Positions 4,584-13,899 of a DNA stretch of 50,758 bases are shown piece after piece. A program made the position numbers and the translations under genes. Source of the stretch: a bacterium (lineage in GTDB: Bacteria; Bdellovibrionota_C; UBA2361; OMII01); contig JAFMJG010000003.1 of the NCBI GenBank assembly GCA_017853605.1, positions 1-50,758 on the forward strand, written 5' to 3'. The notes under the pieces were generated by a model, which made no database searches, was not told where the DNA came from, and was given only the letters and a program-made list of their open reading frames with translations. Positions within the stretch are counted from its first letter, which is position 1. Each line of letters begins with the position of its first letter.

Positions 4584-5294
4584 CTACTCGACAGGGAGCG
4601 CTCGATTAAGCTCATCGAAGAGCTTCACAAAGCTCTCGCTCGAGGCTGGGTAGCTCCGGCCAAACCGGCGAATGACAAGCGAATAAAGCTCCTCTGGGCT
4701 CGTTGCAACGATGAGCTCCATCCTGCGAAAGAGCGGGTGCTGGTCGAGAAGCGCCCGGCGCTTGCTGAAGTAATTTGCCTTGAGCCGTGTCTCCATCGAC
4801 TCCTGAAAGAAGCGCCGTGACTCGCCCTTGAGCGCGTGCATCGCCCGCGTGTAGCCCCGGTACTCCTCGCGGTCACGAAAGTCCCCATATCCCTTCTTGT
4901 TTCGGTAGAAGCGAACCGGGTGGTACTCCAGGAGCACCCCGTCCACAAGAAAGTCGACGCTGTAGGTGTTTCCCCTGCCGTCGGCGCCGATCGCGACCTG
5001 AAACGTGAGCCCAAGCTTGAGCTCAAATCCGGGCACGAAGCGCCGAAGCAGCTCTGCGCAGATCGCCTCGGAACGCGAGCAGAAGCCAGGCTGCGCCCGC
5101 GGTGGTGGCGTCATCTCAAAATGGGCGGGGCTGTCGAGGGGCCTGTCGCGGTTTTCGCTGTGCAGGCGCTTGAACTTTTTTCGGAGATGTCTGCGGGAGA
5201 AGTGCCGGGGCGCCTCAAGGGGGCCGGGGTCCACGGGGCTCGGCAGCTCGGGGGAGGAATCTTCAGCGCGTGCCGCTGTCTGCTCTTCTTTCAA
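4584..5294 (-). CDS. hypothetical protein, probable PD-(D/E)XK (Vsr/DUF559-like) nuclease fold
   Basis: TTG start with AAGAGGAG RBS; SRSEAICAELL...YSVDFLVDGVLLEYH matches the S-x-x-E...DF...EY pattern. Confidence 0.6.
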   Translation of the reverse strand: MKEEQTAARAEDSSPELPSPVDPGPLEAPRHFSRRHLRKKFKRLHSENRDRPLDSPAHFEMTPPPRAQPGFCSRSEAICAELLRRFVPGFELKLGLTFQVAIGADGRGNTYSVDFLVDGVLLEYHPVRFYRNKKGYGDFRDREEYRGYTRAMHALKGESRRFFQESMETRLKANYFSKRRALLDQHPLFRRMELIVATSPEELYSLVIRRFGRSYPASSESFVKLFDELNRALPVE

Positions 5295-6198: not shown

Positions 6199-8298
6199 TC
6201 ACTTCTCCGTCAGGTTCCAAACCGGCGAGAAGCCGGTTTCGCCAAGCTGCTTACTAGATGCTATCCGGGCGCAATATGCCCGACTGACGGGGTCATCGGC
6301 AAATGTCGCGAAGAGCTCCCCTGCTTCCACGACGTTGCCAGCCTCAAAGAGCTGCCTCGCCCGGTCGAATTCGCCGAGGCGCGAGAGGATCGCGCCATCA
6401 AGCCGGGGATGAAGCGGCTCGAAGAGCTGCACAGGCTCCTGGCGGCCAACAACCCTCGCCTGGCCCACCGTTCGCCATGCAAGCTCGTCTCCCGCCCGCC
6501 GGCGGGTGCTTCCTGAGACGAGCACATTCGTCCCGAAGACCTTGTTGACGCCCTCGAGGCGCGATGCAAGGTTGGCGGCGTCGCCGATAACGGTGTAGTT
6601 GAAACGGGTCGATGAGCCGAAGTTTCCCACGGTCACCGGCCCGGTGTGGATCCCTATGCGCATGCGGAGCGAGACGCCAAAATCCCGCTGAAACATCTGG
6701 CCGAGCTCCCGAAGGCGAAGCTGGCACTGGATTGCCGCATTCACAGCCCGCTTCTCGTGGTCGTGCACCTGCAGGGGCGCGTTCCAAAAGGCGATAATTG
6801 CGTCCCCCTCGTACTTGTCGATCGTCCCACCGGAGGCCAGAAGGATGTCTGTCATCTCGGAAAGGAACGTGTTGAGGAACGCCACGAGCTTCGCCGGCTC
6901 CATGCGCTCAGAGATGCTCGTGAACCCGGCGATGTCGGAGAAGAAGATCGTCAGCTCCCGCCTCTCGCCCCCCAGCGCCAGGCTCGAAGGGTCCTTAACG
7001 ATCTGGTTTATCACCTCTGGAGTGACGTAGTGCTGGAACGCTGCCTTTATGAATCGGTGCTGCCGGCCCTCAACCCGGTACTGGAGCAGAAACACCAACA
7101 GGAGCAGGTAGAGGCTCGAAAGGAGCGGGGCAACGACCGGAAGCCACCACCCCTGGGCAGCAAACGCGAAGCTTGCGCCCGCCCAAGCAAGCACGGCACC
7201 CAAGATGATCGCGGCCTGGTAGCGCGTTGCCCTCAGGCTGACAAGGGCAACGAGCCCGAGAAAGAGCGCCGTGAGCGCGAGTGCCGCTGCAGGCGGCACC
7301 TCACGGTAAAAGCTCGTGTGGAGGAGGTTGTCGAGAACCGTCGCATTGAGCTCAACCCCCGGATAGTTTCCCGCCACAGGAACCGGCCGCAGGTCGAGCA
7401 GCCCCGGTGCGTTCGTGCCGACAAAAACGTACGCATCCTTAAACACTTCAAGGGGGATGTCGGGCCTCTTTCCCTCACCGAGCTTCAGCCAGCTGTTGAT
7501 GACCGCCGCTATTGAGTACGTGTCGTAGGTCGCCTCCGGGCCGAAGAACCTGACCAGGAGCTTTCCGCCCTCTCCGGCCAGCGGCGCAACCTCCTCGCCC
7601 TTCCCAGACCCGGGATGCACGAGGGCATAGAGCGCCGCAGGAAGGCTCAGGACCGGTGTCTCGCCGACTCGCGCCCCGAGAGCAGCGTGCCGGAAGATCT
7701 TGTCGGCATCAGCCTCGGCAGACACGTTGCCGAGCGCTGGGCTAGCCTCGATAAGCATCGGTATCGGCAGGGTTGCCGACGGAAAGCGGGGGGACGCAAG
7801 GGAGGCGAGGAGGCGCTCGATCTCTCCCCTTCTCCTCTCTTGCGAGGACCGGAAGAGCTCCTCTGTTGCGGGATCACCATCGACGGAGTCACGCCGGGCG
7901 GATACCGCGCTCACAACCGGCAGTGAGCTCGCCACCACGTCAGCAAACTCCTTGTCGTCTCCGACGTGGGTTGAGCTCTCAGTAAAGAGCATGTCAAACG
8001 CCACGCCCCGCGCGCCGGCCCGCGCCAGGTAGAGGAGGACGGGATTGTACAGTGATCGCGGCCACGGCCAGTAGATCTGCTCTGTGCGCGCATAGTGGTC
8101 GATTGAGCTCTGGTCGACCATGATGATCTTAATCTTTGGGTCGTGAGCCTCCGGGCGAACAAGGGCCTGCTGCCGCATGTCCCAGGTCTTGCTCTCAATG
8201 TCCGCAAGCAGCCCTGAGCTGAGCAGAAGCCACGCCAGCAGCGCGGCAGAGAGCCATATAAAAAACACCCCCCGCTGTAGCTGTCTCGCCGCGCTCAT
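6199..8298 (-). CDS. CHASE2-domain class III adenylate cyclase
   Basis: CHASE2 motifs (WPWPRS, AFDMLF, YPGVELNAT), three TM helices, catalytic FSDIAGFT, DKYEGDAI, RIGIHTG, YTVIGDAANLASRLEG. Start placed at ATG 8298 behind AAGGAG. Confidence 0.93.
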   Translation of the reverse strand: MSAARQLQRGVFFIWLSAALLAWLLLSSGLLADIESKTWDMRQQALVRPEAHDPKIKIIMVDQSSIDHYARTEQIYWPWPRSLYNPVLLYLARAGARGVAFDMLFTESSTHVGDDKEFADVVASSLPVVSAVSARRDSVDGDPATEELFRSSQERRRGEIERLLASLASPRFPSATLPIPMLIEASPALGNVSAEADADKIFRHAALGARVGETPVLSLPAALYALVHPGSGKGEEVAPLAGEGGKLLVRFFGPEATYDTYSIAAVINSWLKLGEGKRPDIPLEVFKDAYVFVGTNAPGLLDLRPVPVAGNYPGVELNATVLDNLLHTSFYREVPPAAALALTALFLGLVALVSLRATRYQAAIILGAVLAWAGASFAFAAQGWWLPVVAPLLSSLYLLLLVFLLQYRVEGRQHRFIKAAFQHYVTPEVINQIVKDPSSLALGGERRELTIFFSDIAGFTSISERMEPAKLVAFLNTFLSEMTDILLASGGTIDKYEGDAIIAFWNAPLQVHDHEKRAVNAAIQCQLRLRELGQMFQRDFGVSLRMRIGIHTGPVTVGNFGSSTRFNYTVIGDAANLASRLEGVNKVFGTNVLVSGSTRRRAGDELAWRTVGQARVVGRQEPVQLFEPLHPRLDGAILSRLGEFDRARQLFEAGNVVEAGELFATFADDPVSRAYCARIASSKQLGETGFSPVWNLTEK

Positions 8299-8404
8299 GA
8301 TCGCCATCTCCTTGGGGCGCGAGCCCCTCAGAGCAGGGCATACCACGCCTCAGCCACCCTCACCAGGAGGGTAGGAGCGCGAGCTCCTGCTATCTACCGG
8401 CGCG

Positions 8405-9547
8405 CTACTTGCCGTGCGAGAGGCGAAGCTTGTCCGCCAAGAGGTCCTCGTGGGGAATCTCGCTCCACTCCTGGGACGTTATGTGCACGACCTCGAGGCC
8501 GTGCTCCTCAACGATCTTGCGCTGCAGCTCGTCACGCCCGAATCGCCTGCCCCCGTCCGGCCCAGAGGAGAAGTGATAGTGGTACCCGTCGGCCTCGATG
8601 GCGATGAGGCGCCCGCTGCTCCTCAGGTGCACGACGAAATCAACGAGAACCCCCCCGATGCTCTGCTCCTCACGAATCTCATGATCTGTGCCGTAGAGAA
8701 AGCTCCGTAGCGCCCCCCCAACCGAGGCCTGCAGCGCTGACTCCCTGCCGAGCTGCCCATCGGTGATTCTCGCGCCGGCCCACCCCGTGAAGCCGGCTTC
8801 CGTTGGTGAGCACATTCCTGCGGCAACGAGCGTTTGGTAGATAAGCTGGTACACCTCCGGGTCGCAATCCTCCTCCCTAAGCATGGACTCCGACATCAGC
8901 GTGCGGAGCTTTTCAGGCGCCAGGCGCGCCAGGGGCCAAGCGATGCGGGCCCTCGACTCGATTGGAAGCTCGTCGATTCTTGAGATCCTGAGAGCGCTAC
9001 GCAGCAGCGCCTTGGTCAGCTTTGGGTCGTCGATGTCGAGGTGATTGAGCGACCACAAGAGGTTGGCGATCTGCGCCTGTGTCAGCTGCTTTTGCTTCTC
9101 CTGCACCTGCTGGCCGATGAGCGAAAAGAGGGCCTCATCCCGATAGCCAAGCATCGCAAGAGCCCTGGAGATCTTGGATGACATGTAGGTCGAGAGGTGC
9201 GGCGCATGCTTGGCGATATCGAGGCAGCTTTGGGCGAGCACGCTGTACTCGAAGCTCTCCCGATCACAGAGCCGCTTGCGCAGGCTGCCCGCCTCATGGT
9301 CCTGCAGCCTGGCCAGGTCACTCAAGCCATGGCCGAGCAGCTCGAGCGCGTACCACTCGCTGGAAGCGCGGCTGGCGTTCTGCCGGACAAGCTCCATCGC
9401 CATCACGGGATCTTCATGAAAGTGTCGGAGGACGAGGTCGGTGTCCCGATGGGGCATCTCTGGCTGCTCGCCCAGCGCGGCAGGCGGCTTGGCGCAATCG
9501 TGCTCTCTCTTCAGCTGCTGCCTGTACTCTTGCCGACGAAACCCCAT
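8405..9547 (-). CDS. helical-repeat (HPR/OPR-like) plus RAP-domain protein, FASTK-like
   Basis: Repeats SKISRALAML / ANLLWSLNHL / ARIAWPLARL spaced 37 and 39 aa; C-terminal VDFVV...IAIEADGYHYH...QRKIVEEHGLEVVHITSQEW is RAP-like. Confidence 0.78.
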   Translation of the reverse strand: MGFRRQEYRQQLKREHDCAKPPAALGEQPEMPHRDTDLVLRHFHEDPVMAMELVRQNASRASSEWYALELLGHGLSDLARLQDHEAGSLRKRLCDRESFEYSVLAQSCLDIAKHAPHLSTYMSSKISRALAMLGYRDEALFSLIGQQVQEKQKQLTQAQIANLLWSLNHLDIDDPKLTKALLRSALRISRIDELPIESRARIAWPLARLAPEKLRTLMSESMLREEDCDPEVYQLIYQTLVAAGMCSPTEAGFTGWAGARITDGQLGRESALQASVGGALRSFLYGTDHEIREEQSIGGVLVDFVVHLRSSGRLIAIEADGYHYHFSSGPDGGRRFGRDELQRKIVEEHGLEVVHITSQEWSEIPHEDLLADKLRLSHGK

Positions 9548-9556
9548 AGGCTCGCT

Positions 9557-9586
9557 AGTGTACCAACCCGAAGAGCCTTACTCCAA
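9557..9586 (-). promoter_or_regulatory. putative sigma70 promoter of the RAP gene (near-leaderless)
   Basis: TTGGAG-N18-TACACT with TGn extension; ATG 9 nt downstream; no SD. Confidence 0.4.
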
Positions 9587-9645: not shown

Positions 9646-10557
9646 CTACTTTAGGGCCGCGAAACGGGCTTTCCGGGAAGCCGGGACATCCGTGGCCGGC
9701 GGAAAGGTAAAGTCGCTGTTTAGCTCCTCAATTCTGTCTGCCGGCCGTGGGTGAGTGGCAAACCACCCGTCGTGCTCACCCTTCGCGTGGGTCTCCAGGA
9801 TCGCCAGCACCCGCACCAAGGCATTCGGGTCGTAGCCTGCCCGCTGCAAGAGCTCTGCAGCATACAGGTCTGCCTCATACTCCTGGCTTCGGTCGAACCC
9901 CTTGGTCAAGAGGGTGTCCACCACGCCGGAGACACTTTCAGCAAATACTCCGGTGATCGGCCCAAGGTTGACGGGGCTCGAAACTTTGCTCGCCGCGATG
10001 GAGGCCCCAGCCTGCGAAGCCTCTGTCAGCGCCGAAAAGAGCTGAGCATTTGAGATTGCGTTTATTCCGTGGCGCTTCACGACATGAGCTATCTCATGTG
10101 CCAGGACAGCAGCCGTGGCGTCCTCATCGGGCAGCTCGGAGACAAAGGCCGAGGATATGTAGACGAAGCCTCCCGGGGCCGAGAACGCATTAATCTCGCG
10201 CGACTCAACAACCGCAAAACGGTACCCTGCAAAGGTCTCCGGCGTGTCAGACACGCTCACGAGGCTCATCCCGATCTCGTTAAGGTAACGGCTCGCCGGC
10301 GCGCTGCGGCGCGGCGGGAACTTTGCGAGGAGGCTCGCAGAGACAGCCCGACCCAGGTAGTACTCCTGCTCTGGAGTGAGATCCTCCTGGGACTTCACCA
10401 GGCCGGTGCCCGCTGACAGGAGCCCGTTGGCCTGATCCGTTGTGACGTACCCGGTGGAGGCAAGGACCCCCGCTCCCATCTGCTGCAGGCCCGGGTGCGA
10501 GCACCCGGTGCCAAGCACAAAGACCATCGCTGTGACTAGCCCTCTGCGTGACATCAC
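9646..10557 (-). CDS. M48 family Zn metalloprotease, lipoprotein
   Basis: Lipobox-like LGTGC; INAFSAPGG, VLAHEIAH, QEYEAD, FATHP motifs. Confidence 0.92.
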   Translation of the reverse strand: MMSRRGLVTAMVFVLGTGCSHPGLQQMGAGVLASTGYVTTDQANGLLSAGTGLVKSQEDLTPEQEYYLGRAVSASLLAKFPPRRSAPASRYLNEIGMSLVSVSDTPETFAGYRFAVVESREINAFSAPGGFVYISSAFVSELPDEDATAAVLAHEIAHVVKRHGINAISNAQLFSALTEASQAGASIAASKVSSPVNLGPITGVFAESVSGVVDTLLTKGFDRSQEYEADLYAAELLQRAGYDPNALVRVLAILETHAKGEHDGWFATHPRPADRIEELNSDFTFPPATDVPASRKARFAALK

Positions 10558-12558: not shown

Positions 12559-13899
12559 ATGTCAACTCCCGCCCCAACCTTCAACAAGCTGGCCGAAGCC
12601 CTGAACATCCCAACCCTCGCCACCGCCCTGCCCCAGATTGCGATGCTGGGCATCGAATGTCTCGACAACGCCTGCGCCAAGCGCGGCGGCCCGGCCTGTG
12701 CCTGGGACTCAAGCCAGATTCCCCTGCCAGATCCCGCTGAGGAGGAGCAGCCGCACCCGTGCGTGCTGATTGACGTCGGCGGCACCCAGACAAAGGTTGG
12801 ATTTCAAAACGGGGATGGGGAGCTGCGCAGCCTCTTTGATCACCCTAACACCTGGTTCAAGAGAGAGGCTGCTGCAGGCGACGCCCCTCTTGAGGGCTTC
12901 CTCGCGACGCTTATCGCTGAGATCCAACGCGCCCTCCCTGGTGTTGAGCAGGGGTGTAGGCTGGGGCTCATCTGGTCTAACCAAGTGCTGTGCGTCCCGA
13001 TAGAGACTCCCCATACGCGCGGCGTTTCGGGGATAGTGCAGGGCACCAAGAGCGGCGGATACCGCAAGGGCGAGTGGTTTCTGCAGGGCGTCCGAGACGG
13101 TGACGACGTCGGCGCCCTCTTCCTGCGGGCGCTCGGCAAGGTTGGCTGGCGGCCCTCTGTGTTTCTGCTGGGGAACGACACTGTTTTTACGCTCTTTGCC
13201 ATCTCTCACTCAACGGCCGGAGTTGTCATGTCCTCGGGGGGCAACTGCACCGCGATCGGCGAGGCGGGAGGGGAGAAGGGCCACATCATCAACACCGAAC
13301 TTGGCGGGCACCTAAAAATTCCAGGCTCGCTGCTCTCTGATGGCGACCGGTTCTTCGCCGAGTCTCGTGGAGTCTCCTCGCTCTCGCTCGAAGAGCTGGC
13401 TGCTGGCACATGGTTTCCGGGGCTCGTGTATGCCCACGTGTGTGCCGCGGCCCAGATACCCGAGGGCGAGGGTCTCGTGCCGCTGCGCGATGCGCTCGTG
13501 TCCGGCGAAGTGACGCTCAATAACCGCATGCTCGTGGCCTCTCTGTGTGAAGCAAGCCCGGACAGGGTGCCCACGGCTATTCTGGATGCCGGCAGCCTCT
13601 TTACAGAGCTGCTGACCGCCCTCGTGCTTCGTGGAGGCAGCCTTGCGGGTGTCCTCTGCTACCTCTCTGTTGCCTCCCAGCTGGCCAATCCTATTCGGCC
13701 CGTTGTTGTCGCTCTCGACAGCTCGATGTCGCGGCACTTTCCGGGCTTTTATGATGCGGCAACGAGCGCATTCAGGTTGCTGTGCGCAGGCAAGGCTGCG
13801 GAGGTTCACCTCGTTCGCCCCCTCGAAACCCGAGGGGGGAGCGACATCTCTGTCCCGATGCAGGGCATGGCTCGCGCGCTCAACACCTTTTGTCCCTAG
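12559..13899 (+). CDS. eukaryote-type hexokinase family protein (divergent)
   Basis: Motifs in canonical order: IDVGGT, LGLIWS, GNDTVFTL, VVMSSGGN, IINTELG, LEELAAG.WFP, VALDSSM..HFPGF. Confidence 0.72.
   Translation: MSTPAPTFNKLAEALNIPTLATALPQIAMLGIECLDNACAKRGGPACAWDSSQIPLPDPAEEEQPHPCVLIDVGGTQTKVGFQNGDGELRSLFDHPNTWFKREAAAGDAPLEGFLATLIAEIQRALPGVEQGCRLGLIWSNQVLCVPIETPHTRGVSGIVQGTKSGGYRKGEWFLQGVRDGDDVGALFLRALGKVGWRPSVFLLGNDTVFTLFAISHSTAGVVMSSGGNCTAIGEAGGEKGHIINTELGGHLKIPGSLLSDGDRFFAESRGVSSLSLEELAAGTWFPGLVYAHVCAAAQIPEGEGLVPLRDALVSGEVTLNNRMLVASLCEASPDRVPTAILDAGSLFTELLTALVLRGGSLAGVLCYLSVASQLANPIRPVVVALDSSMSRHFPGFYDAATSAFRLLCAGKAAEVHLVRPLETRGGSDISVPMQGMARALNTFCP

Follow-up and report, generated by a model that had tools for sequence, protein, structure and literature searches.

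A gene on the minus strand of the window (the whole stretch of 50,758 nucleotides analysed here) encodes a 380-amino-acid protein, present as described earlier (Table 1), which belongs to a bacterial family that joins HPR-type helical repeats to a complete Vsr/EDxHD-type site, the residues of which are found together in 46 of 49 lineage proteins. By fold this family is like the HPR-RAP and FASTK proteins, but by Pfam or by motif it is not a member of them. The reading favoured here, with a probability of about 0.4, is that the protein binds and cuts RNA and is exported to a prey or host cell by a non-flagellar type III-like apparatus. In this proposal, which draws on analogy for the repeats and on conserved residues for the nuclease, the 37-residue helical repeats would bind single-stranded RNA, the Vsr-type domain would cut the bound RNA, the N-terminal tail would act as an export signal, and the type III-like apparatus would carry the protein into a prey or host cell, where its target would be foreign. 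The 380-aa copy, with about 2.5 repeats, would read a short motif or structure, and the long paralogs would read more.

Table 1. Features of the gene and of the encoded protein, in positions of the window.
Feature	Position	Strand	Remarks
ORF, helical-repeat and Vsr/RAP-fold protein	8405..9547	-	380 aa; same-junction orthologs in 7 further genomes; dN/dS 0.12 (G005 vs G008 orthologs)
N-terminal tail, residues 1-43	9419..9547	-	Hydrophilic, fast-evolving, low confidence (pLDDT <50 at 1-5 and 19-43)
N-terminal capping helices of solenoid, residues 47-113	9209..9409	-	AlphaFold helices 47-59, 64-84, 88-93, 99-113; no repeat-HMM match
Repeat 1, residues 118-154, HPR-like helical hairpin	9086..9196	-	37 aa; repeat HMM E 4e-7; helices 120-133, 138-150
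Repeat 2, residues 155-193, with ANLLWSL	8969..9085	-	39 aa; repeat HMM E 6e-4; helices 157-169, 175-190
Half repeat 3, residues 194-224	8876..8968	-	Repeat HMM E 0.03; helix 196-209
Linker helices, residues 230-264	8756..8860	-	Conserved W.Q.YQAL-type helix; alignment A3, AlphaFold model
Vsr/RAP-fold nuclease domain, residues 268-374	8426..8746	-	D303, E318, D320, H325, D339; Q273
Promoter-like element	9557..9586	-	TTGGAG, 18 nt, TACACT with TG before; 9 nt to ATG; upstream-DNA alignment

Locus, history and distribution of the gene

On one side of the gene stands an M48 peptidase gene (9646-10557) and on the other a CHASE2-cyclase gene (6199-8346), the three sharing the minus strand, and annotation of the flanking ORFs confirms the position given in the preliminary description. 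No chaperone gene adjoins it, no Rfam match falls within the window, and the gene is free-standing and intergenic, with no intron or intein context seen. An ortholog occupies the M48-cyclase junction in the gene's own genome (G000) and in G001, G002, G005, G008, G017, G018 and G021, and in G041 an ortholog stands directly before pgl-surA-gatB, without the cyclase. The preliminary description had also read this arrangement as an insertion and left as a question whether relatives lack the gene. Both points hold: the junction is empty in many relatives, with M48 followed directly by the cyclase in seven of the genomes examined (G016, G019, G023, G025, G035, G038 and G039) and likewise in loci L065, L067 (nearly identical to G019), L069, L070, L072, L073 and L074, while genomes in which the M48 and cyclase genes lie apart (G014, G022, G024, G030, G034) were left unscored. 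Since the junction is empty outside the genus, the insertion is taken as an ancestral event. Other genes sit at the junction in G015 (L023:2059-5876) and G010 (L024:1993-5674), and because these are unrelated, the junction is best regarded as a variable slot; by eye, they are presumably a DTW-domain gene and a mechanosensitive-channel gene.

A functional link to the M48 and cyclase genes was rejected, because the operon exists elsewhere without the gene and G041 has the gene without the cyclase. Recent horizontal import was likewise rejected on GC, GC3 and synteny, the gene having a GC content of 0.626 and a GC3 of 0.80, both like those of its neighbours, whose GC3 is 0.73-0.83. Around the overall dN/dS in Table 1, the values by region for the same pair are 0.40 in the tail, 0.09 in the repeats and 0.09 in the nuclease region. 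The gene has been resident for long, has ameliorated and is under purifying selection. Two further conserved ORFs of the window may be recorded here, neither with a Pfam match. One, of 236 aa (4584-5294, minus strand), is syntenic in G001, G008 and G021 at about 68-73% identity and carries a VDFLVDGVLLEYHP stretch, which in our view resembles a PD-(D/E)xK-type nuclease motif; the other, of 446 aa (12559-13899, plus strand), is conserved beside argG and nagB and looks to us, by eye, like a hexokinase-type sugar kinase.

The gene had also been credited with a promoter-like element of its own, and this is borne out by conservation, though the element is missed by a strict sigma-70 consensus scan, which found 0. 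In 10/10 short-class homologs, which are kin and not independent, a -10-like TAnnnT is found 5-10 nt ahead of the ATG, compared with 115/1168 genome ORFs. By eye, no Shine-Dalgarno-like motif precedes the ATG, and from the sequence the transcript is predicted to be near-leaderless. Another promoter-like motif, TTGACT-N17-(A/G/C)AT(C/A)(C/A)T, is shared across different loci a few bases before the ATG, upstream of L001:7953 (minus strand) and of long paralogs in G001, G003, G023, G046, G048 and G062. A promoter-defined regulon was considered and rejected: in G000 neither motif is found ahead of any gene but the family gene it belongs to, and total counts equal those of shuffles.

Several of these observations bear on another explanation, one that we regard as very improbable: that the protein is an endonuclease acting on DNA, and that its gene may be a selfish, homing-like element, standing free and spreading by means of its own promoter. 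It would account for the full set of EDxHD-type residues, which Vsr and I-Bth0305I also have, for the long paralogs that share an upstream motif at different loci, and for the occupied junctions. These fall in two branches of the genus, each with empty relatives, both in a tree of the locus (25 rows) and in one of the unlinked SctV (21 rows), so that there may have been two insertions. Against this, IQ-TREE neither shows nor rejects a single origin of the site proteins (p-AU 0.465), the tree of the orthologs agrees, inside the G000 branch, with that of the host markers, only one of the order-wide matches listed contains stop codons, searches of phage and plasmid collections with the pure-repeat paralog of G048 gave no match, no intron or intein was seen around the gene, and HPR proteins are reported to bind RNA, not DNA (PMC6212722). 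The site proteins group weakly with G042 in FastTree (0.87 and 0.70 in two trees).

The suggestion that the gene is a stray, of a kind rare in bacteria, did not survive, as it is instead a member of a lineage-wide, multi-copy family. Its own genome holds five family copies (on contigs C105, C205 and C181, and two on C45), and the family profile A3 matches 30/83 order genomes, 32/96 phylum genomes and 4/23 outside the order. Within the genus it matches 23/35 genomes, or 21 once G004 and G006 are removed, where the matches are only short and lie in 1857- and 1455-aa frames. Genomes have 0 to 5 copies, with open frames of about 370 to 1000 aa, and ortholog groups retain neighbourhoods of their own at a number of separate loci. 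A further candidate of the G000 genome (C158:3-2948; L004:3-2948, minus strand) was dropped from the family and used as outgroup, as it encodes part of a superfamily-1 helicase that carries an MTES_1575 nuclease domain; it lies on a contig of 2.9 kb and is a possible defence gene. The C181 paralog has next to it a series of coiled-coil ORFs specific to the lineage (L003:4621-8552), two of them apparently paralogous, and the one that was scanned has no convincing Pfam match.

The long stay at one locus, the host-like GC3, the purifying selection and the conserved promoter-like element would all suit an accessory RNA-binding protein or RNase that works inside the bacterium's own cell, in processing, decay or a dormancy or anti-phage response on its own transcripts, as a bacterial parallel to FASTK. 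The eukaryotic homologs do work on RNA of the organelle in which they reside, and a hydrophobicity analysis of residues 1-43 finds no Sec-type hydrophobic stretch and no signal peptide. This possibility is nevertheless doubtful, since A3 finds no family member in 12/35 genus and 53/83 order genomes (incomplete assemblies, in which a miss means not found), the gene evolves much faster than its neighbours (63% identity between the G008 and G021 orthologs vs 86-95%, with dS saturated), no PADLOC model fits beyond short nuclease-domain matches at E 3e-4 to 1e-3 in 2/6 proteins, and no conserved partner gene is common to the family's different loci.

Helical repeats, predicted fold and kinship

A repeat HMM, seeded from one paralog and refined on 17 paralogs, all at other loci, gives the 380-aa protein 26.9 bits, compared with a maximum of 7.6 among 500 shuffles. 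The repeat cores start at residues 124 (SKISRALAML), 161 (ANLLWSLNHL) and 200 (ARIAWPLARL). The preliminary description had named three repeats with a periodicity of 37 and 39 residues around a core ANLLWSL..L; the spacing stands, but the core is literal only once, and the E values in Table 1 leave two firm repeats and, as the third, a weak half repeat. In the predicted structure two full tandem two-helix repeats lie 37 residues apart, in keeping with the definition of heptatricopeptide repeat (HPR) proteins by two or more 37-aa two-helix repeats in tandem and the lack of a PPPEW motif (PMC6212722), an assignment made here by spacing and helices.

Repeat spacing in the paralogs is mostly exactly 37, with nine such intervals in the G048 paralog (L145:2060-3952, plus strand; G048:C106). 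This protein consists of nine near-identical 37-aa units, which differ from one another at few positions, and a final half unit, followed by an intact nuclease domain. Such near-identity suggests a recent repeat expansion, and the pure array is suited to repeat-code experiments. For the 380-aa copy alone, with its approximately 2.5 repeats, strong sequence specificity is doubtful.

An AlphaFold model built with a 29-sequence alignment (mean pLDDT 87.6, pTM 0.84) replaced a single-sequence model, which was discarded at a pLDDT of 50.7. It places an alpha-solenoid at residues 47-224 after the low-confidence tail (1-43), linker helices at 230-264, which we take as the equivalent of the FAST2 region, and an alpha/beta domain at 271-374. 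This last domain is predicted to have the restriction-endonuclease-like alpha/beta fold, C-terminal to a helical region, that characterizes RAP. In VIA-align the model best matches a chain of the Toxoplasma mitoribosome (9i05_Xr, Z 21.5), with a second Toxoplasma mitoribosomal chain at 20.1, and it matches FAST1-FAST2-RAP of human FASTKD4 over model residues 48-377 (Z 20.5, rmsd 3.4, 261 aligned, 18% identity), while the best beta-catenin and importin rows reach Z <=8.7. Foldseek agrees, with E values of 3e-8 to 1e-4 for its best 10 matches (Toxoplasma mitoribosome chains and FASTKD4).

Sequence profiles give the same kinship. A3 matches RESC6 (2e-36), mL115 (1e-20), FASTKD4 (4e-9) and Toxoplasma RAP-domain proteins, and the top ESM Atlas clusters are RAP, RESC6 and FAST_1 (0.94-0.96). 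By hhalign, the family's nuclease-domain profile matches a clade that holds a haptophyte RAP protein with a probability of 97.8% (E 7.7e-13). Together with the model and the structural searches, these matches bear out the architecture of HPR repeats and a RAP fold, and the kinship with organellar RNA factors, that had been proposed from the sequence. Word-index homolog searches, an insensitive method, returned only the protein itself and nothing among longer proteins, and a full HMM library scan returned 5428 proteins at E<=1e-10. Of the top 149 library proteins and 50 from the own set, 141 have a scorable nuclease core, and in a FastTree of these the lineage proteins stand apart from the clade containing the haptophyte RAP protein (support 0.98), most rows being without a taxon label.

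The family thus resembles FASTKD4 (PDB 9GEK) and FASTK in having helical hairpins, linker helices and a Vsr-like domain. It differs in that it is bacterial and has no mitochondrial context: the gene is not nucleus-encoded with a mitochondrion-targeted product, but lies among bacterial housekeeping genes in conserved synteny. With the apicomplexan and algal HPR/OPR-RAP proteins (Toxoplasma mitoribosome chains of 9I05/9G6K, Chlamydomonas mL115) and trypanosome RESC6 it shares 37-aa two-helix repeats, as well as profile and structure matches. As HPR proteins bind RNA and not DNA, and as models of FASTK seat the RNA in a saddle that leads towards the RAP face (PMC12687428), RNA is by analogy the likelier substrate.

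Nuclease domain and active site

The motifs VDF (302-304) and IEADG (317-321), which had been put forward as marks of a C-terminal RAP-like domain, are present, and they fall in a domain with a RAP/Vsr fold in the confident part of the model. The best Pfam match of the protein is REase_MTES_1575 (residues 283-367, E 3.3e-7), under its cut-off. A search with RAP, HPR and DUF1601 profiles and a look for an alpha-solenoid had been proposed as checks, and their outcome is divided: the AlphaFold model contains the solenoid, whereas Pfam RAP (PF08373, at E<=0.1), FAST_1, FAST_2 and DUF1601 (PF07671) do not match the protein, a negative that the more sensitive tests described above overturn. No NCBIfam model matches the protein at E<=1e-8, and searching the own genome with PF08373 returned 0, an uninformative result, as the control was silent too.

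Among 29 family members, PF08373 weakly matches six (best E 0.0015), FAST_1 matches eight, and MTES_1575 is the commonest Pfam match (23/29), while DUF1601 and FAST_2 match none. FAST_1 is above its cut-off in the G024 paralog (48.2 > 27.4), which FAST_2 also does not match, and P0006, the tree sister of the G048 paralog, passes both PF08373 (30.8 > 24.2) and DUF1601. The 380-aa protein therefore does not show the FAST_1 plus FAST_2 plus RAP architecture by which FASTK is defined in Pfam.

D303, E318, D320 and H325 occur in 49/49 lineage proteins, and the lineage family motif is ExDGxxxH...GxD in 46/49, the same number in which D339 completes the five. The 380-aa protein reads EADGYHYH ... GRDELQRK, and does not carry the eukaryote-type signature EVDGPxHF ... 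TxLKRR. In a comparison clade of 26 proteins of that type the motif is EVDGPxHF, with the His one residue earlier, the position of D339 is T, M, S or A, and the full set occurs in 0/26; this clade and the number of repeats (about 2.5) separate the 380-aa protein from the HPR/OPR-RAP proteins. Asp, Glu, Asp-x-His and Asp make up a Vsr/EDxHD-type site, a correspondence drawn by motif and not by structural superposition. In such sites an Asp binds Mg, a His serves as general base and an Asp is its neighbour, according to two reports (PMC3239194, PMC3384342). Judged by these residues, the family keeps a bacterial Vsr/MTES_1575-type site and not the eukaryotic RAP signature. Its likeness to the Vsr, EDxHD, DUF559 and REase_MTES_1575 proteins lies in the same fold and the composite active-site residues; it differs from them in that the nuclease is fused to HPR-type repeats and not to a helicase or DNA-binding domain, scores below the MTES_1575 cut-off and lies where no intron is seen.

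These comparisons also weigh against the favoured reading of an exported, RNA-cutting protein, as the nuclease motif, by its residues, is closest to DNA-cutting Vsr/EDxHD enzymes. Furthermore, FASTKD4 has been reported to be without nuclease activity (PMC11879112), and FASTKD5 cuts RNA without metal, unlike Vsr (PMC12242768), so the shared fold is no proof of catalysis. At the position that corresponds, from motif, to H69 of Vsr, FASTKD4 has Asn and the family keeps His.

A second point, against cutting by the 380-aa copy in particular, is that this copy alone has Q273 in place of the Glu found in 46/49 of the family, at a position which we take, from Vsr, to be a metal ligand. It is conceivable that this copy, in whatever location, binds RNA or serves as a scaffold without cutting, like FASTKD4 or the mitoribosomal RAP/HPR proteins: Gln is the residue of the eukaryote-type group (21/26), and the structures matched best are those of ribosomal subunits and of FASTKD4, which is reportedly inactive. 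We consider this very unlikely, however, since the five remaining residues of the site are unchanged and the syntenic orthologs all keep Glu at 273.

Proposed export and significance

The proposal of export to a prey or host cell depends in part on the secretion machinery of the lineage. The own genome holds a flagellar FlhA gene and two SctV-like genes, together with three SctR/FliP-type and two strong SctN/FliI-type matches. The two SctV-like genes (L184:9473-11581, minus strand, on C217; L185:6634-11575, plus strand, on C140) are non-flagellar, one lying near a Tad-type ATPase gene and the other near SctJ-like, FliA-like sigma and TPR genes, an arrangement that resembles the T3SS*/Tad pairing of Myxococcus. 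All non-flagellar type III matches (SctV-, SctJ-, SctR- and SctN-like) are under curated cut-offs. Searches of the genome for the needle subunit, TLC and DotH gave no match, with silent controls, and those for VipB and VirB4 gave none, with controls that matched. Most order genomes have three FlhA/SctV matches, and as genes of this type (flagellar FlhA included) occur in 83/83 order genomes and the family in 30/83, no test of co-occurrence is possible. Myxococcus kills prey with a Tad pilus and a needleless T3SS* (PMC12075869), and Kil systems have been reported in 81% of Bdellovibrionota genomes (PMC13200544).

Set beside 1212 genome ORFs, 27 family proteins have N-termini with more S/P/T/Q/N (0.39 vs 0.26) and fewer hydrophobic residues (0.20 vs 0.33), a comparison of related proteins with a crude background. 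The tail of the 380-aa protein itself is not S/P-rich (0.23, 36th percentile), and over residues 1-43 orthologs with an overall identity of 63% share 24-31%. The net charge of the protein, -10, also counts against the favoured reading. A distribution that is patchy and multi-copy, fast evolution, and tails that are hydrophilic and vary would suit effectors; the near-universal presence of the apparatus in the order and the composition of this copy's own tail speak against it.

Comparable proteins have been described in other bacteria. RAP/OPR proteins are published from a few bacterial proteomes (PMC8190603) and from Coxiella (PMC8635915), and RAP-domain repeat proteins from Orientia (PMC7729196) and Rickettsiella (PMC13667924), with structurally similar repeats in type III effectors. 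Compared by description, these and the SKWP proteins are, like the present family, bacterial helical-repeat proteins, some of them with RAP; those bacteria differ in being intracellular or plant-associated, and the SKWP type III effectors have repeats of about 42 aa and no RAP domain. Table S1 of PMC8190603 lists bacterial RAP candidates and may bear on novelty, and the part of PMC13126933 at hand contains nothing on bacteria. A partial literature search, confined to main texts, found no account of this lineage's family.

A broader version of the favoured reading, unlikely as it stands, is that the lineage would maintain a diversified arsenal of repeat-programmed RNA endonucleases delivered to prey or host by a type III-like route, that the family would be the catalytically complete bacterial form ancestral to eukaryotic RAP and FASTK proteins, and that the G048 array would let the HPR code be read. 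According to a 2025 review, it is unresolved whether the RAP fold of FASTK is a working nuclease, and bacteria are said to lack fastk genes (PMC12687428). With this compact family from bacteria, whose predicted architecture is the same and whose Vsr-type site is complete in 46/49 members, the question of the RAP nuclease can be put to a direct test on small single-chain proteins. Repeat numbers in the family run from about 2 to 10, with one nearly perfect array, which suits the study of RNA recognition by 37-aa repeats. If exported, the family would be candidate cargo of a type III-like apparatus whose components occur throughout the order.
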